In this document: positions 19,559 to 49,858 of the stretch, one piece after another
Position numbering within the stretch: position 1 is the first letter of the stretch
How the letters are laid out: each line of letters begins with the position of its first letter
From: a virus
Direction: 5' to 3' (one strand)
Virus record (IMG/VR): IMGVR_UViG_3300035698_031678
Coordinates: 32,001 to 96,000 of that record
Length of the DNA stretch: 64,000 nucleotides
Notes under the pieces: model-generated
The model's database searches: none
Seen by the model: the letters and a program-made list of their open reading frames with translations, nothing else
What the model was told of the DNA's origin: nothing
Translations under genes and position numbers: made by a program

Positions 19559-19918
19559 ATGATAGTATTTAAAGATAATATACTCGTAGAACCTGTTTTA
19601 AACAAAAGCATGGGTGATATTACTCTTAATGATAGAGTACTAGAGAAAAATGTAGAACAAAGAAAAAATCTTGGTGTAGTAATTGCAATATCTGATGGTA
19701 GCAACAAGGTCAAAATAGGAGACTATGTGGGTTATGCTAGTAGTGATGGAGTTAACGTAAAAAACGGTTTAAAAAAATACGTATTGCTTAGCAAAAGAGA
19801 AACTTTGTTTCAAACAGATGAATTAGAAGGGCTGGCAGTACACGATCACGAAAGGTATGAAGGAATAGATAGATTAGTTTCTAAGCATTACCACAAAAGA
19901 GAAGGTGTAAAATTATAA
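19559..19918 (+). CDS. groES: GroES-like co-chaperonin
   Basis: DNILVEP...GVVIAISDG...VKIGDYV Cpn10 pattern. Confidence 0.8.
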   Translation: MIVFKDNILVEPVLNKSMGDITLNDRVLEKNVEQRKNLGVVIAISDGSNKVKIGDYVGYASSDGVNVKNGLKKYVLLSKRETLFQTDELEGLAVHDHERYEGIDRLVSKHYHKREGVKL

Positions 19919-23687: not shown

Positions 23688-23719
23688 TTTAACCTTTTAA
23701 CCTTTTAACCTCTTAACCT
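23688..23719. repeat. 8-bp tandem repeat (TTTAACCT)x4
   Basis: TTTAACCT TTTAACCT TTTAACCT CTTAACCT read directly. Confidence 0.85.
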
Positions 23720-24031
23720 TTTTAATTTTCTTATTTTGTTTCTCCTGGACAAGGCGTTCATTGTAAAACTTTCAAATAAATCTACAGTAGTGTCGGACTT
23801 ACCTAACATCACCAACAGATCCATGAAATCATCTATAACATCTGTGTCTTCCATATCGACATCTTCACCCATTGGGTTAAAGTCAGGGTTTTTGGAATTG
23901 ATTTTTCCCCAACCTTTGTTAAAATCCTCAAGAATTTTATCTTTAATATCTTCTTCTTTGATTACTCTACCAGTAACGTTATTAATGGTGAATATTTCTG
24001 CAAGTTCTTTTTTAGAGTATTTTGACTTCAT
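23705..24031 (-). CDS. hypothetical acidic protein, possible internal head protein
   Basis: 108 aa with LFES motif, in the polyprotein operon. Confidence 0.55.
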   Translation of the reverse strand: MKSKYSKKELAEIFTINNVTGRVIKEEDIKDKILEDFNKGWGKINSKNPDFNPMGEDVDMEDTDVIDDFMDLLVMLGKSDTTVDLFESFTMNALSRRNKIRKLKRLRG

Positions 24032-24037
24032 TTTATT

Positions 24038-24310
24038 TTACTTTAAATAATCTGTAATGGTATCTACATCCCAACCTTCATCATTATCAGGTTTGCTTTC
24101 GACAACTTTTATTATCTGTGGTAAAGTCCAACCATCTTTAATAAGAAATTCTTTAACTTCTAGAACGTTTTCCATTTCGCTGGAACTATATTCTTCCATT
24201 ATGTTCGACAATTCCAATATAATATCGGATTTAGACCATTTGTTGCCTTCAAATTCTTCGTTTAATAATTTAACGTCTTTAGACTCAAGTAATTTTATTA
24301 ACACACTCAT
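24038..24310 (-). CDS. small acidic protein with N-terminal LLES/LLNE motifs, possible internal head protein
   Basis: MSVLIKLLESKDVKLLNEE N-terminus. Confidence 0.6.
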   Translation of the reverse strand: MSVLIKLLESKDVKLLNEEFEGNKWSKSDIILELSNIMEEYSSSEMENVLEVKEFLIKDGWTLPQIIKVVESKPDNDEGWDVDTITDYLK

Positions 24311-24315
24311 AGTTT

Positions 24316-27300
24316 TTATTTTAAAAAATCATCTATAGCTGAAGTAGCATCATCTGCAGCCTTGTTTAAATTTTTGGAAATATCTTCCTCAAAACCTTTT
24401 ATCTTTTCTTTATGGGCTTTGATTTGGTTTTCTAACTTTAACTTAACATCAACGTCTTCAGTTCTAGAAATTTCTTCCTCTTTTTCTGCAATTCTATTTC
24501 TCTGCTCTTTTATTTTAGATAAGATATTTGCTTCTGATTCTTTAGACTTTTGATCTTGTAGTGATTCAAGTTCAGAATCTATTTTGTCTAGTTCAGACTG
24601 CTTAGTGTCTTTGTCCAAGTTCTGATCTCCTGAAACGGTCTTTTTGTTATCTTTTAAAGACTTTATTTTTTCATCTAGAGCGGATTCGTTCATTGCATCA
24701 GAAACATTGTGCTTAACATTCATGGTTTCTAAGACTTCTTTGATTTTATCCATATCAGAATCAGAAACATTTTTGAAGACTAATTTTTTTCTATCTCCTT
24801 CTGACTTTTCAACTTCAGTACTTAAAATACCAGTCTCTATTATGTCTCCCATAAAATTATCTGCATCAGAAGCAGAATTAAAAGTTACGGTTCTATCGCT
24901 AGAATTTGACTCATCTAAACTTTTCACCAAGTTGTATCCATTGGTTTTAATGTCTAAATCCATTTCTTCCTTAGAATCAAATCTTTCAAGATGTAAGCCA
25001 TCGTTATCAAAAAGAAAATAATCTTCACCTTCTTTTTTCATGGTAACTCTGTTATCTTCATATAGCTCTTCAGAAATTTCATGACCAAAATTAGCATTCA
25101 ACATGTCTTTGTCTTCTTCTATAACAACGTCTGTACAATTTGACTCAAACAGAACTGTTTTTATTAGTGCTATTTCTCTATCGAAGAAACTTTCGTAGAG
25201 GTTGGTAAATTGATATGAATTCTTTGACTTTCTTGTTAATTTAATGTTACTACCATTAGGGTTTCTTTTGGCAATAGCTTCATTAAGGTGTGATACCAAA
25301 GAATCATCAGAATCATATTTAAAGGCTTCTAGCTTTTCACACTCAACTAAGATACCATAGAATCTTTCAATGTTATCATAGATAAGAGGATAATTAGCAA
25401 GCTCTTCTTTGTCTATCCAAGCGTGATCTTGAACTTCATCATCAGTATATTCTGTTTCTTGAGTAGTAATTTCACCCATAAAGTAGTTAGATATACTACC
25501 TTCATCATTAGCGTATTCTCCAACTCTTACTGGATTTATAATGTCTAATCCTACTTCCTCTTTACATTCTCTAATGCAACCTTCTATAGATGTTTCGCCA
25601 GTCATTACTTTACCACCTGGAAAACCCCATTTACTAGGTTCAAAGTCAGATTCTGAAGATCTTTGCATTAACAAATATTTTCCTTGTTGATCTCTGACAA
25701 TCATATCAGCGTAAATTTGCATTGGAGAATCTATACCCATTTCTAATGCTGCTTCACTAAGGTCTTTAGCGTGTTTTTTAGCATAGTTTAGCCCTTCTTT
25801 TATACCAACATTTTCTTTTATAACCTGACCTATTTTACCACCTTCATAAGGGTGTAAGTCAAATTTACTAGAAGACTGGCTTCTGATTTTAAAGTAGAAC
25901 TCTCTACCAGATTCGTCTTTGATAGTTACATCTTTACCTGAATCACCTTGGGTATTAGATGTTTGGGTAAACTTAGATTCGTTTAAGTTACCTTTTACTA
26001 TTTTGCTAAGCTCCTCTTCATCTAACCAAATGTTTATTGGTCTACCTTCATTCATTTTAAAAACACAACTTACGTCTCCGATTTTACCGACTCTAACTAC
26101 TTCGTTATTACCGATTTTTTGTGGTGGAGTTTTGAAACTTGTTATGTTGAAGTTGAAGTGTTTGTTTATTTCTTCTACAGTTTCTAACTTGGATTCAGAA
26201 TCGTCTAAGGCAAAAATGCAAATAGGGTCTACTATCTCAAGTGTATTAATAACAAAGTCTATAAATTCTTCTTGATTTTCTTTAATCAGAGCATACTCTT
26301 CTAAAGTGTGATAAGAAACTATTGTGCCATTGTATATCTTAGTGAAGCTTTCATCAATGTCAGAAAGGTCACTTTTAACCTTAAATAAGTAGTCAGTCAT
26401 ATAAACACTACCACTTTTAGTAGTTACAAGGTTTTCATCAACAGATTTAACTGTAAACAATGTATTTGGATGATCTGAATGACCGACCAGGTCACCAGCT
26501 CTTATTTTGCTTTTAGTACCAACCATTTTTGAATTGACATCAAGATTTAAAGGTGGATTTACTGGGTCAATATTCCATTCTTTAAAGCTTTTTGATTCTG
26601 ACATGTTCAATGTGTTAGCCAGAGTTAGGTCAAATTTCAGAACGCCATCTTTTAAAGAAAAAACGTAATATCCCTTAACTAACAGGTTTAATTTTTTAGC
26701 CCAGACTTTAATTTCATTCTTTATCTCCTTACCCAATTTAGTAGAAAAGAATCTTTCACCATAGGGAGTGTTGTAATTTTCAGATTTTTTAATATCAATA
26801 TCAAAACGATATACTAAATTAACCTTAGAACTATCGTTAACAAGTTCGCCATTTACATTACCAGTCTCTGAGGTGTTACCAATTTTATCTTTTAAACCAT
26901 TAATATTTGATTTAACCAAGTCTTGAGCCTTAGTAAGGTTTTTAGAAATTATTTTTTCAACATCTTTAATTTGATCTTCTATTACTTTTTTAAAAGAGTT
27001 TTTATGTCCATCAAATCCAACAGATTTCTTACCATACCAATCATCCATACTTTCAGGCAAGTTTTTCTGGTAATTTAAAAAAGGGACTCTGAAAGTTTCT
27101 AGAATTTCATTAATCCCTAAACCATTTGATAAATGTTCAACATACAAAGATTTTAAAGTAGATTTTGAGTTAAGAGTAGAATTTGAAAACACACTACTAA
27201 AGAATTCTTCATGGTTATTTTTAGAATTTCTAGATTCTAGTAACTCACCATATCCAACTGCATTACCTCTGTTTGCCATAGCTCCAGCAGCTGCTCCATC

Positions 27301-28389
27301 AGTTTCGTCTAAACGATCATATTCATCATTGAAGTTTAAGCCATACTTTTTGTAAAATAGATCGTATGACTCTTCATTTCTTTCTTCCTGACCATCAAAT
27401 TCATCAGGATCTACCCCATCTAATAAAGGTAAGTATGCATCTTCTAGGTCTGAAATACTGTTAAAAGTCTTTTTAGACTCGAAAAGGTTGGTAATTCTGT
27501 TTTCTTTTAGCTCACCAAGTATAAGAACGGTTTTTTTAGAAGATCTTGATTCTGATAACCTTTGAGCAGCGAAAACGTTTCTGTTTATTAGTTTATTTTT
27601 TAAAATTTTAACAGCAGATTCATTTAAATTAAGAAGATTGTCTTCATATTTGTCTAGTATGGCAGCTTTGATTTCTTCTTCTGAACCTGAATCGTCAAGA
27701 CCCATTTCAGCAGCCATAACTTCAATTTCAAACAGGTTTAAAGACTCTAAGTGTCTTTTAAGGCTATCAGGATCTTTGAACTTTGATTCATTTAAACCTA
27801 GAAATTCTTTTCCTTTTTTAGATATGGCATATTGCTCTATACCCATCACTGTATTGTTCATGATAAAGTCTTTACTTTGGGCTTTGTCAATCAGTTCTTT
27901 TGGAAATTCTCTATTAATTTTAGACTGGAATATTCTATCATCAACATTATCTGGTGTGATTGCGTGGAGAAGTTTAATAAGGTCTTTGTCCGAATCAGCA
28001 GATTCATTTAAGTCCATAAATTCTTTCCCCATCATGGATATAGCATATTGTTCTATGCCCATCACTTTATTGTTCATGATAAAGTCTCTACTTTGGGCTT
28101 TATCTATAAGTTCTTTTGGAAATTCTATGTCAATTTTAGATTTAAATATTCTATCATCAACATCATTTGGAGTAATTGCGTGAAGAAGTTTGATCATGTT
28201 TTTGTCTGAATCATTCGATTCGTTTAAACCGCCTACGCCTTTTATACCTTTTTCTTTTAAAAAGAATTTAATCTCTTCTTCAGCATCTTCTTTAGACATT
28301 ATAGAAATTTCATCTTGTATCAACATCCATTCATCAAATAATCGAGGATAATTGTTAGCTATGTCTAAGTTTATGAGTTCTATATTCAT
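24316..28389 (-). CDS. multidomain putative internal head polyprotein with Nudix hydrolase domain
   Basis: Nudix box GGKVMTGETSIEGCIRECKEEVGL; two wHTH-like repeats; SAP/HeH-like and SH3-like modules; repeated LNES-type motifs. Confidence 0.8.
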   Translation of the reverse strand: MNIELINLDIANNYPRLFDEWMLIQDEISIMSKEDAEEEIKFFLKEKGIKGVGGLNESNDSDKNMIKLLHAITPNDVDDRIFKSKIDIEFPKELIDKAQSRDFIMNNKVMGIEQYAISMMGKEFMDLNESADSDKDLIKLLHAITPDNVDDRIFQSKINREFPKELIDKAQSKDFIMNNTVMGIEQYAISKKGKEFLGLNESKFKDPDSLKRHLESLNLFEIEVMAAEMGLDDSGSEEEIKAAILDKYEDNLLNLNESAVKILKNKLINRNVFAAQRLSESRSSKKTVLILGELKENRITNLFESKKTFNSISDLEDAYLPLLDGVDPDEFDGQEERNEESYDLFYKKYGLNFNDEYDRLDETDGAAAGAMANRGNAVGYGELLESRNSKNNHEEFFSSVFSNSTLNSKSTLKSLYVEHLSNGLGINEILETFRVPFLNYQKNLPESMDDWYGKKSVGFDGHKNSFKKVIEDQIKDVEKIISKNLTKAQDLVKSNINGLKDKIGNTSETGNVNGELVNDSSKVNLVYRFDIDIKKSENYNTPYGERFFSTKLGKEIKNEIKVWAKKLNLLVKGYYVFSLKDGVLKFDLTLANTLNMSESKSFKEWNIDPVNPPLNLDVNSKMVGTKSKIRAGDLVGHSDHPNTLFTVKSVDENLVTTKSGSVYMTDYLFKVKSDLSDIDESFTKIYNGTIVSYHTLEEYALIKENQEEFIDFVINTLEIVDPICIFALDDSESKLETVEEINKHFNFNITSFKTPPQKIGNNEVVRVGKIGDVSCVFKMNEGRPINIWLDEEELSKIVKGNLNESKFTQTSNTQGDSGKDVTIKDESGREFYFKIRSQSSSKFDLHPYEGGKIGQVIKENVGIKEGLNYAKKHAKDLSEAALEMGIDSPMQIYADMIVRDQQGKYLLMQRSSESDFEPSKWGFPGGKVMTGETSIEGCIRECKEEVGLDIINPVRVGEYANDEGSISNYFMGEITTQETEYTDDEVQDHAWIDKEELANYPLIYDNIERFYGILVECEKLEAFKYDSDDSLVSHLNEAIAKRNPNGSNIKLTRKSKNSYQFTNLYESFFDREIALIKTVLFESNCTDVVIEEDKDMLNANFGHEISEELYEDNRVTMKKEGEDYFLFDNDGLHLERFDSKEEMDLDIKTNGYNLVKSLDESNSSDRTVTFNSASDADNFMGDIIETGILSTEVEKSEGDRKKLVFKNVSDSDMDKIKEVLETMNVKHNVSDAMNESALDEKIKSLKDNKKTVSGDQNLDKDTKQSELDKIDSELESLQDQKSKESEANILSKIKEQRNRIAEKEEEISRTEDVDVKLKLENQIKAHKEKIKGFEEDISKNLNKAADDATSAIDDFLK
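27785..28228 (-). repeat. 216-bp (72-aa) tandem duplication inside the polyprotein
   Basis: GATTC of the LNES codons recurs at 27785, 28001 and 28217; near-identical translated units. Confidence 0.9.
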
Positions 28390-28390
28390 C

Positions 28391-29137
28391 TTAAAGGTTA
28401 ATTTTTGTAAATTTGTTATTACCAGATCTAAAGATAAGTGTTTTACCTTCGTTTACTTTAATGGATTGTTTAGATTGCAAAACTTTCATTTTAGCAACGC
28501 TAATGCTTTCTAATAATGCTGACATGTTAACTGGGTCTCTCCTTATACTGCTCATTAGAACTCTACCCATCATACTCTTCTCTCCATTTTTAACAGCATC
28601 CTGGTAAATGGTTTCTCTCATAGTGTAATCGTAAGAGCTTGGATAATGTCCAGTAGATAAACCGTATAGTGCTAGTATACTATTCTCATCCATCTGATTA
28701 AAAACAGCATCTTTTATTTCTGAATTCTCTACTATGCCTTCGTTTAGTTGCATTTGAACCTCTCTCTGGTAAACAGGATAGTGCATCAAGCATTGAGTTG
28801 CTCTAGTTGTTACAACCAAATTCCAGGTTTCGCAATTTTCTGGGTCGAAGTTTGGACAAAGCATGTCCACAGAGTTGTGGAAATGAACTAGTGTGTCGTT
28901 TATTGCCCCTAATAATTTGTCTGACATAAGATCTATCTCAAAACTAGCGTAGTTGGATATAAACTTTAATACAGAATCTACACTTGCAAATTTAGAATTT
29001 ATCAAGTGTCCTAAATTAGCATAACATTCTTCTGTTATCTTATCAGTTTTTTCGTAAACTCTTAAGGATTTAGGATCAAGATTTAATAAAAATATTTCCT
29101 CACCAAAAGAATTAATAATAGAGGTAACATCTACCAT
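28391..29137 (-). CDS. hypothetical late protein
   Basis: 248 aa; AATAAATA at 29154-29161 (minus); LNEG/LLES/VNEG motifs. Confidence 0.6.
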   Translation of the reverse strand: MVDVTSIINSFGEEIFLLNLDPKSLRVYEKTDKITEECYANLGHLINSKFASVDSVLKFISNYASFEIDLMSDKLLGAINDTLVHFHNSVDMLCPNFDPENCETWNLVVTTRATQCLMHYPVYQREVQMQLNEGIVENSEIKDAVFNQMDENSILALYGLSTGHYPSSYDYTMRETIYQDAVKNGEKSMMGRVLMSSIRRDPVNMSALLESISVAKMKVLQSKQSIKVNEGKTLIFRSGNNKFTKINL

Positions 29138-29171
29138 TGCGTTTTAATTTGGTTATTTATTTAACAAAAAT

Positions 29172-31206: not shown

Positions 31207-31758
31207 TTAAGTATCTAGCCAAATTTTTTCTGATAAACTCTTTAAGTTGAATTTAGGGTCAGTTATTTCAACATCAAAATCCTTGAAATCCTTGAATTGC
31301 TCCCAATCTGTAGTCATTCTTTTCTCAACATTGTCAGCGTTTTCCCTTTGCGATAATCTTTCTTCTCTTACATTGTCGCTTATGTTAATATAGACAACTA
31401 TCAATTTACTATTCCTTAAATGCATTGGTAACCTGTTAACGCCAGCTGGAGTCATTATGAAAAGGTTAGATTTATTAAACTCTTCTTTAGTCGTTCCATA
31501 AACAAAACCGTTAGGAAAGTACTTGAATTGCATGAATTTATCTTCACTTATCATTTTTAACATCATGTTTTCTGTAACAAAATGATAGGTTTTTCCTCCT
31601 ACTTCACCAGTTCTTGGTGGTCTAGTAGTATAGCTTATTTCAGTAGTAATATCGTTCAGTTGACTTAGCAAGTTCTTAGCGTAATCTTTACCACTTCCAC
31701 CTTGCCCTACTAAGATTATCTTTTTGTCTCTTAGCCTATTATCTTGTTCCTTATTCAT
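31207..31758 (-). CDS. gmk: guanylate kinase
   Basis: P-loop GQGGSGKD, SYTTRPPRTGEVGGKTYHFV, YGT. Confidence 0.92.
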   Translation of the reverse strand: MNKEQDNRLRDKKIILVGQGGSGKDYAKNLLSQLNDITTEISYTTRPPRTGEVGGKTYHFVTENMMLKMISEDKFMQFKYFPNGFVYGTTKEEFNKSNLFIMTPAGVNRLPMHLRNSKLIVVYINISDNVREERLSQRENADNVEKRMTTDWEQFKDFKDFDVEITDPKFNLKSLSEKIWLDT

Positions 31759-49318: not shown

Positions 49319-49858
49319 ATGGTAACTAACTTAGAAGAGCTAAAACGATTTTTAGAAGGAAAGGGAATAAAACTTAAAGTACTTAGGACTGATGAATTTC
49401 TTTCTATAGACGAAATAACATTCAAGTACTTTGATGGAAACAGATTTCTATCGATAAGAGGAATGGGATCTAACAAGCTGCAAGTTTTAAAAAAAGAAAG
49501 TACTGCTATAAACAAGGAAGAAGCTGAGACTAATAAAGAAAAAAAGATATTGCTGAAAGTAAAGTCTTTGTTAGAATCTGAAGTTCAAGATGGAGAACCA
49601 ACTCTAAGACATTACAACGAACTTGTGGAATCAAGAAAATTAATGTCAAATCTGGTAGAAAAATGTGAATCAATAAGAGAGCTTTATCACCAAAATTGCG
49701 TTACAGCAGTACCAGGTAGAGTTAGAATAGAGTATTTAGGTGTTTACATTTCAGTAGACACTGAAAGAAGAATATTCATAAAAAGTGATGGAAACATTAA
49801 TCTTTCAGAAAGCCTAGAAGACATAACAACAATGGTAGAAAACATAAAAAATGCTTAG
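49319..49858 (+). CDS. hypothetical protein
   Basis: 179-aa ORF. Confidence 0.55.
   Translation: MVTNLEELKRFLEGKGIKLKVLRTDEFLSIDEITFKYFDGNRFLSIRGMGSNKLQVLKKESTAINKEEAETNKEKKILLKVKSLLESEVQDGEPTLRHYNELVESRKLMSNLVEKCESIRELYHQNCVTAVPGRVRIEYLGVYISVDTERRIFIKSDGNINLSESLEDITTMVENIKNA

Follow-up and report, generated by a model that had tools for sequence, protein, structure and literature searches.

The window analysed here comprises 64,000 nucleotides (bases 32001-96000) of the complete 129,295-bp virus record IMGVR_UViG_3300035698_031678 with terminal repeats. It contains on its minus strand (24316..28389, start ATG, stop TAA) an open reading frame (ORF) for a protein of 1357 amino acids (aa), which is probably a polyprotein that is loaded into the prohead and cut by the phage's own S77 head protease at L-x-E|S sites, the bar denoting the scissile bond. 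ORF call and translation make this target protein a candidate head-cargo polyprotein with a computed mass of 154.6 kDa and a pI of 4.77. The computation gives a code of repeated sites, the restriction of this code to head-type proteins, a protease with His and Ser in place and module borders that fall on sites; from these we infer loading into the prohead and cutting at the sites. PHROG and Pfam scans identify the genome as that of a distantly T4-like myovirus. It carries a baseplate wedge protein, a head-closure protein, a clamp loader, a gp32-like single-stranded DNA-binding protein (SSB), a primase and a helicase, as well as a Portal_T4 portal, a Gp23 capsid protein and a Peptidase_S77 or 'head maturation protease' domain. 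The host is probably a Flavobacterium-type bacterium.

The initial annotation of this gene had counted about 18 [LIM]-x-E-[SAT] motifs, five of them LNES. All 18 are present in the translation, and ILET (429) and IIET (1183) bring the number to 20, compared to a mean of 4.32 (sd 2.0) in 5000 composition-preserving shuffles of the same protein. LNES occurs five times with a shuffle mean of 0.08, L-x-E-S 12 times with a mean of 1.01, and none of the 5000 shuffles reaches the observed counts for these two patterns or for [LIM]-x-E-[SAT]. The shorter [LIM]-x-E is found 41 times, compared to 26.2 in the shuffles. Six of the 20 sites have the strict form LNE[S/A] and 14 are looser. T4 gp21, an S77 protease, cleaves after Glu at L/I-x-E (PMC9026906, PMC7411985), and the target motifs agree with this published rule (PMC9026906). 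With 1.47 motifs per 100 aa, the target is among the densest of the 76 window ORFs listed. A 179-aa ORF elsewhere in the window (49319-49858, plus strand) has a density of 1.68 per 100 aa from three motifs, LLES, LVES and LSES.

The strict form of the site is confined to very few proteins of the phage. The census covered 138 ATG-initiated ORFs of at least 60 aa with a total of 40,439 aa, and the expectation was derived from composition. LNE[S/A] is observed 26 times with 2.56 expected, and all 26 occurrences are located within five of the 138 ORFs: 11 in a giant protein of 1964 aa that bears the protease, six in the target, six in a protein of 685 aa (p685), two in the gp20-like portal and one in a protein of 312 aa (p312). 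The remaining 133 ORFs have none; they encode sheath, baseplate and replication proteins with lengths of up to 1036 aa, among others, and eight large proteins of 836-1036 aa are listed with zero occurrences. The ORF set of the census contained an overlapping spurious ORF in place of the small gene p90, which leaves the LNE[S/A] count unaffected, as p90 contains no such site. In the logo of the 26 sites, Leu at P3, Asn at P2 and Glu at P1 are followed by Ser (22) or Ala (4) at P1'; Asn is found at P4 in 10 of 26 and Lys at P2' in 11 of 26. The sites are encoded by 19 distinct 12-nt words, in which all six codons for Leu and both families of Ser codons appear in proportions similar to those genome-wide, so the constraint acts on the protein and not on a DNA word. 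As LNE|S is otherwise found only in head proteins, the target is a probable capsid cargo and a probable substrate of the head protease. A census of short N-terminal leaders with a terminal site, by comparison, gave three among the 138 ORFs and two in a control window, which is not significant.

The candidate protease is encoded in the same genome. The S77 domain forms the first ~230 residues of the giant ORF (L005, C1:114903-120797, minus strand; outside the window), which is located immediately upstream of the capsid gene. It matches PF03420 with 32.8 bits and phrog_207, head maturation protease, with an E-value of 1.9e-25. It also aligns with T4 gp21 (PDB 5jbl) with an E-value of 0.0084 and has His and Ser where the 5jbl chain carries Ala, positions which we take to be the catalytic ones of a gp21-type domain. 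The remainder of the giant is a fast-evolving polypeptide with 27 [LIM]xE[SAT] sites, 11 of them LNE[S/A], and its internal duplications start at sites. The Gp23-like capsid protein, for which no close relatives were found in viral contigs, carries two sites, IFE|S (residue 12) and LCE|A (residue 40), at positions that are conserved in Flavobacterium phage MaF61. The portal (L003, C1:100854-102731, minus strand) carries its two LNE|S sites at residues 187 and 265 around an acidic stretch, and the first of these is positionally conserved in the MaF61 portal. By analogy to the portal of SPN3US, which is reported to be processed, this portal may be processed as well. The protein p685 (L002, C1:1035-3092) has 13 sites, six of them LNE[S/A], and is orthologous to MaF61 ORF76; p312 (L006, C1:128000-128938) has a single LNE|S. 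Neither has a family match, and both are further candidates for head-interior proteins.

MaF61 is the closest cultured phage, with 52.8% identity in the capsid protein and 54% in the protease domain, and 69 of the 138 ORFs have a counterpart in it at E <= 1e-5. In its 182 ORFs (51,490 aa), LNE[S/A/G] is found 12 times with 3.5 expected. Ten of the 12 are located in the protease-bearing giant ORF140 (four), in the syntenic Nudix protein ORF123 (four) and in the portal (two). ORF140, a protein of 1404 aa with the annotation 'putative prohead scaffold', is organised like the giant described above and can be aligned with it over the first 226 residues only. ORF123 (924 aa) is the syntenic orthologue of the target: its neighbours ORF125 and ORF126 match p333 and p222, and the primase gene is located downstream. 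It begins with a 10-residue leader that ends in LNE|S. The pair p685 and ORF76, at 33% identity, has four consecutive sites in common alignment columns, in which P3, P1 and P1' are kept and P2 varies. This is the behaviour expected of the gp21 rule L/I-x-E. The pattern is thus present in a cultured, non-pathogenic phage, grown on Flavobacterium sp. B330, which makes the idea directly testable.

A third protein extends the pattern further. Among ~5.8 billion proteins, one real relative of the target was found, P0003 (1521 aa), and the two can be aligned at 46% identity in the Nudix domain only. P0003 contains eight LNES with 0.09 expected and 19 looser sites with 4.6 expected. The N-terminal module of the target shows a weak resemblance, which is not significant, to the N-termini of P0003 and MaF61 ORF123, and both of these proteins also have helical charged tails at their C-termini. 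Searches for relatives of the target gave little else. For residues 1-880, no relative was found among 1.84 billion representatives except the target itself and one fragment of 58 aa, and for residues 1010-1357 none among proteins of near or shorter length. No relatives were found in viral contigs, only Nudix matches among deposited phages, and no usable match in the ESM Atlas.

The sites divide the target into modules, all coordinates being on the minus strand of the window. The N-terminal module (residues 1-57, 28219..28389) ends with LNE|S. It is followed by two tandem repeats of 72 residues (58-129 and 130-201, 27787..28218), each with a terminal LNE|S and without a Pfam match, and by a module bordered by LNE|S on both sides (202-257, 27619..27786). 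Orphan modules assigned from motif positions occupy residues 258-879 (25753..27618) and are separated by ten sites of the looser pattern, LSES, LFES, LDET, LLES, ILET, LPES, MSES, IDES, LNES (802) and LSEA (877). The Nudix module (880-1037, 25279..25752) is flanked by LSE|A and LNE|A. Further orphan modules (1038-1235, 24685..25278) contain the sites LYES, LFES, LDES, IIET and MNES, and a charged helical tail (1236-1357, 24319..24684) forms the C-terminus.

These modules behave as units at the sites, since the repeats are in register with them, a module has moved and a small gene has been split off or fused. The two 72-residue repeats align over their full length (72 of 72 residues) with 80.6% identity, and their register coincides with that of the sites. 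This duplication did not appear in a BLAST self-comparison of the whole protein and became apparent in a protein-level comparison of modules. The giant contains a duplication in which residues 1105-1172 share 96.7% identity with the initial 61 residues of the module beginning at 1173; both copies start at P1'. MaF61 ORF123 and P0003 share a module of 118 residues (38% identity, E 7e-17), which precedes the Nudix domain in the former and follows it in the latter; in both proteins it starts just after a site. The second gene downstream of the target, p108 (108 aa; 23705..24031, minus strand), is a small separate gene whose product is homologous to a module within MaF61 ORF123, with 34% identity over 89 aa and an E-value of 2e-9, and both copies end with LFE|SF. 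In the homolog comparison suggested in the initial annotation for module gain or loss, duplicated or exchanged modules start or end at sites. By these alignments, the sites are the points at which modules have been duplicated, reordered, fused and split. In p108, LFE|SF is followed by a basic tail. Two further candidate similarities were dropped: that of target residues 681-804 to residues 879-990 of the giant, noticed by eye, is not real (E 14), and a match of target residues 130-201 to residues 230-372 of the giant, with an E-value of 2.9e-4 in a tiny database, was not relied on.

The only module with a family assignment is the Nudix hydrolase of 18.0 kDa. Pfam PF00293 matches residues 893-999 with an E-value of 3.4e-16 and 59.9 bits, compared to a cut-off of 21.1. 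The Nudix box has the consensus G-x5-E-x7-R-E-U-x-E-E-x-G-U, which includes catalytic Glu residues. An intact box had been noted from the sequence, and it matches this consensus as a regular expression at residues 926-948 (25546-25614, minus strand). One site flanks the Nudix fold on each side, LSE|A with its scissile bond after residue 879 and LNE|A with its scissile bond after residue 1037. No [LIM]xE[SAT] is found within residues 893-1002 and no internal site interrupts the fold. The best PDB matches of the module are 3grn and 2rrk, and MTH1-type chains align over residues 13-155 of its 158 residues. The best NCBIfam matches (Nudix family hydrolase, MutT, NudG) reach 38-44 bits with cut-offs of 98-245, short of an equivalog that would give the substrate class, and from these matches the subfamily can be described as MutT/NudG-like only.

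Sister proteins of this Nudix domain were retrieved with an alignment of the three Nudix modules as query, which gave three viral-contig loci. In two of them, L013 (6896-8296) and L014 (6896-8320), a single chain joins a sister Nudix domain (48% identity), a Peptidase_S78_2 domain of the XkdF-type phage protease (E 5e-14 and 7e-15, respectively) and a helical tail; in L013 a portal gene is located 2.4 kb downstream of this chain. Fusion of sister Nudix domains to a head protease counts in favour of head cargo. These chains lack L-x-E|S punctuation (none observed, 1.5-1.6 expected). The third locus, L015 (6971-10501), encodes a protein of 1177 aa with an N-terminal Nudix domain, a PHROG 22901 region, a zincin-like HEFAH motif, a weak metallopeptidase match and a helical tail, which together give it the predicted architecture of a polyvalent protein. 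PHROG 15528, annotated as portal protein, also matches the Nudix segment. Among the best 80 metagenome loci found by the Nudix alignment, the Nudix ORF is stand-alone and shorter than 300 aa in 79, and LNE[S/A] is found in none.

Taken together, these results are consistent with the following course of events. The precursor would be built into the prohead of this distantly T4-like phage, with the N-terminal module and the C-terminal helical tail as candidate targeting elements. The gp21-type (S77) protease would then cut after Glu at L/I/M-x-E|S/A/T, with L-N-E|S as the preferred form. Cutting at the six strict LNE[S/A] sites only would release seven pieces, while cutting at all 20 sites would release 21 pieces of 15-158 residues. 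One of these would be the MutT/NudG-like Nudix hydrolase of 18 kDa, released by cuts that fall almost exactly on the borders of its domain. Some of the fragments, the Nudix enzyme in particular, could be retained in the capsid and reach the cell together with the DNA; this retention and ejection is a possibility to which we give somewhat less than even chances. More tentatively still, L-N-E|S may represent a general 'cut here' code, by which any stretch between two sites becomes a separately released capsid cargo. Under such a code, a single gene could supply, at DNA entry, the Nudix enzyme and a variable set of twelve or more small proteins, and the protease itself would reside on a second polyprotein of nearly 2000 residues. 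The strategy would resemble the polyproteins of RNA viruses, with the head-maturation protease as the processing enzyme. An injected Nudix enzyme would act on host nucleotides or nucleotide signals before phage gene expression.

The upstream sequence gives a hint on the time of expression. The stop codon of the upstream gene p248 (28391..29137, minus strand) is located one base from the ATG of the target, and the two genes are therefore probably co-transcribed and translationally coupled. The promoter-like word AAATAAATA (29154..29162, minus strand) is located 25 nt upstream of the p248 start codon. It belongs to the pattern [AT]AATAAATA, which is close to the T4 late-promoter word and is present at 17 places in the genome. 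For 12 of the 138 ORFs, this pattern is found no more than 60 nt upstream of the start codon, compared to 3.12 +/- 1.69 in shuffled sequence (maximum of nine in 2000 shuffles). It lies 11-45 nt upstream of these 12 ORFs, which are mostly virion genes, and precedes the genes for the portal, the protease-bearing giant, the sheath orthologue, the baseplate wedge, p685, p312 and p248. The T4 late-promoter word TATAAATA itself is not enriched, with nine occurrences in the genome and one upstream of an ORF. The presence of [AT]AATAAATA before the p248-target operon points to late expression, in a suggestive way only. Around this word, p685 and p248 have a longer stretch of identical upstream sequence in common.

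Several results weigh against a head-loaded polyprotein. The target gene is located outside the head module, among replication genes (gp32-like SSB, primase). In MaF61, which does not share the promoter-like word, it precedes two of 182 ORFs, and the word is therefore only a hint of late expression. The first site of the target lies at residue 57, which differs from the T4-style targeting leader of 10 residues, and an N-terminal profile built from the relatives only matches the target over residues 6-22 with a domain E-value of 0.0088 and a whole-sequence E-value of 0.34. For the 15 non-Nudix modules no relatives were found in the searches run, and as orphans throughout, they may not be folded functional units. 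Hydrophobicity of the flanks does not mark the sites as linkers (0.297 vs 0.323, P 0.155). In the literature searched, no virion proteomics was found for this phage or its relatives, and the accessible text of the MaF61 paper does not contain 'mass spectrometry'. The predicted structures are of poor quality. AlphaFold2 was run without an alignment in two models, residues 1-680 and 681-1357, with a mean predicted local distance difference test (pLDDT) score of 38.6 and 46.3, respectively. The models fail on the Nudix fold itself (pLDDT 24-41), and only the N-terminal 50 residues (52-69), which form three helices and are the best part of the N-terminal model, and the C-terminal tail with its long helices (64-84) are moderately confident. 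Taken at face value, the models place 14 of 19 scissile bonds in contact with predicted coil (8.6 expected, P 0.013), and 16 of 19 bonds have coil within one residue (10.8 expected, P 0.012); these counts exclude residue 680, where the two models meet. At zero tolerance, however, three of the six strict sites are located in predicted helix, and since the models fail even on the Nudix fold, the coil test is a weak one.

The fold labels of the initial annotation were not confirmed. Its polyprotein reading has the site code, the S77 domain, the restriction to five of 138 ORFs and the module borders in its favour, but the DNA-binding and SH3 identities assigned to the modules have no profile support. 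The quoted strings YAISKKGKEFL, LFEIEVMAAEMGLDD and IRAGDLVGH...FTVKSVD are all present in the translation. With each of the 15 non-Nudix modules compared to Pfam at E-values up to 5, no winged helix-turn-helix, SAP/HeH or SH3 match was obtained at the positions given for them, including residues 202-257, which had been described as a SAP/HeH-like unit. A sub-threshold SH3DP match (E 0.0039, 17.2 bits, cut-off 25) is located in a different module, residues 1161-1235. The C-terminal 122 residues, described earlier as a coiled coil, consist of 57-62% helix formers and 0-2% Pro and Gly and show no 3.5-residue hydrophobic periodicity; in composition and model they look like a charged helical tail.

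Other explanations account for part of these observations. The target could be a scaffold or core filler that is cut at the same sites in the prohead, with fragments that mostly leave before packaging and a Nudix domain that is a passenger or has a role in assembly. As such an assembly component, it would not deliver its pieces to the host. Its site density is like that of the protease-bearing giant (1.47 vs 1.37 per 100 aa), its modules are orphan and fast-evolving, its charged helical tail resembles scaffold tails, and many sites on an acidic chain (pI 4.77) that is mostly helical in the low-confidence models are a trait of the T4 gp22/gp67/gp68 type. T4 core proteins are indeed cut into many fragments that exit the head (PMC9026906), and the sister Nudix domains of L013 and L014 are attached to a protease-scaffold. 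A filler would, however, leave unaccounted for the intact Nudix box at 46-52% identity across three otherwise unalignable proteins, which argues for selection on the enzyme. The Nudix domain is, moreover, excised at its borders and not cut internally, the gene is located outside the head module, unlike those of core proteins beside the protease and capsid genes, and T4 IPI to IPIII and Alt show that cut products can stay in the head (PMC9026906). We consider a filler unlikely, at a probability well below that of the polyprotein cut in the prohead.

The location of the gene between the guanylate kinase gene and the SSB and primase genes, the MutT/NudG-like Nudix domain as an enzyme type of the nucleotide pool and the lack of a short targeting leader would also suit a cytoplasmic multi-domain protein of replication or nucleotide metabolism that never enters the capsid, and in which L-N-E-S is a linker that is uncleaved or cleaved outside the head. 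Such a protein would not be expected to share LNE[S/A] only with the protease polypeptide, the portal and two other proteins, while the 133 other ORFs, eight of them encoding 836-1036 aa, have none. The same trio of protease giant, Nudix protein and portal carries the code in MaF61, and sister Nudix domains are fused to head proteases. In T4, the internal-protein and alt genes also lie outside the head gene cluster. A cytoplasmic protein is therefore improbable, even more so than a filler. The least probable explanation, to which we assign hardly any weight, is that the excess of motifs has no function and simply arises from composition or from recent internal duplication. The protein is rich in L, N, E, S and K, and two of the five LNES reside in the tandem repeat, but no shuffle out of 5000 reaches the counts, 18 of the 20 sites lie outside the position shared by the duplicated pair, and the motif recurs in relatives that cannot be aligned. 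Synonymous codons also vary freely at the sites, and site positions are conserved in orthologues at 33% identity.

A prohead-loaded polyprotein of this kind has known counterparts, and the claim that nothing like this strategy had been described was too strong with regard to the polyvalent proteins (PMC5512222) and the multi-site cleavage of head proteins in giant phages (PMC10052503). Among published ideas, the T4 internal proteins and the polyvalent proteins come closest, and the target would be a variant on these. T4 IPI, IPII, IPIII and Alt likewise are head-interior cargo cut after Glu by an S77 protease and diverse between relatives; in T4-type phages only the loading and cutting signals of such cargo are kept (PMC3012670). 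In T4, however, each cargo has its own gene and receives a single N-terminal cut (for Alt, a C-terminal cut as well), whereas the target is one chain with six strict and 14 looser sites. It lacks the 10-residue leader, which its MaF61 orthologue has. Polyvalent proteins are large multi-domain proteins predicted to be packaged with the DNA, for which proteolytic release of the domains by embedded peptidases has been proposed, and they have been compared with the polyproteins of RNA viruses (PMC5512222, Iyer et al. 2017). In L015, the same Nudix subfamily is joined to a zincin-type motif in a protein of this type. About 36% of polyvalent proteins carry a metallopeptidase (MPTase; PMC5512222); their embedded peptidase is mostly this zincin-like MPTase, or an assemblin-like domain at the C-terminus, LonC also being found. 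In contrast, no peptidase family was found in the target in Pfam, NCBIfam and PHROG scans, and it would be cut in trans at an explicit repeated motif. The accessible text of PMC5512222 defines no such site motif, with 'linker' absent and 'cleavage site' only in the title of a reference. Polyvalent proteins are marked by several unrelated recognisable domains; in the target Nudix is the only recognisable one, and for the 15 other modules neither a profile match nor a relative was found.

The giant phages phiKZ, 201phi2-1 and SPN3US provide a further parallel, as their gp21-related proteases cut after Glu at a three-residue motif with Ser preferred at P1' and their portals are processed. For SPN3US gp245 the Ser preference at P1' is documented, several motifs may be present in one propeptide and the portal is processed; multi-site cleavage of head proteins is known in giant phages (PMC10052503). 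Their motif is A-x-E or S/A/G-x-E, unlike L-N-E|S here, and mostly an N-terminal propeptide is removed from a single mature protein, while separation of modules is proposed here. Their protease genes are also not fused to a scaffold-sized polypeptide of nearly 2000 residues, unlike in this phage. The XkdF or S78_2 protease-scaffold fusions of L013 and L014 resemble the present case in having protease, cargo and helical tail on one chain, with the Nudix domain as part of a head-interior protein, but belong to a different protease family and have no L-x-E|S punctuation. In the literature searched, which left most subscription journals outside its scope, no phage cargo polyprotein cut by a head protease was found, and within the same scope no paper describing a virion-delivered Nudix enzyme was found.

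If the sites are cut, the contents of this phage head could be read from sequence alone. For any LNE|S protein of the phage group, a place in the head interior would be predicted, and the segments between sites would form a predicted catalogue of what is delivered with the DNA. Since delivered pieces are the first phage proteins that the host meets, they are likely to include counter-defence factors. A tailed phage would then package many cargo proteins as one polyprotein that is cut in trans by the head protease and whose modules are exchanged between relatives at the cut sites, and a Nudix hydrolase delivered by the virion would represent a new type of phage enzyme with early action.

In the genome, the target is located ~53 kb from the capsid and protease genes. 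The small gene p90 (24038..24310, minus strand) lies directly downstream of it and has a leader of nine residues with a terminal LLE|S. A tRNA scan of the window found none. Genes with a relation to nucleotide metabolism are an orthologue of the MaF61 'adenylosuccinate synthetase' gene, an adenylosuccinate lyase gene (Lyase_1 and ASL_C) and the guanylate kinase gene, with the coordinates C1:28229-29587, C1:99412-100812 and window 31207-31758. The genome also encodes a GroES-like co-chaperonin (window 19559-19918) and a 543-aa orthologue of the MaF61 'putative chaperonin' (C1:12402-14033).

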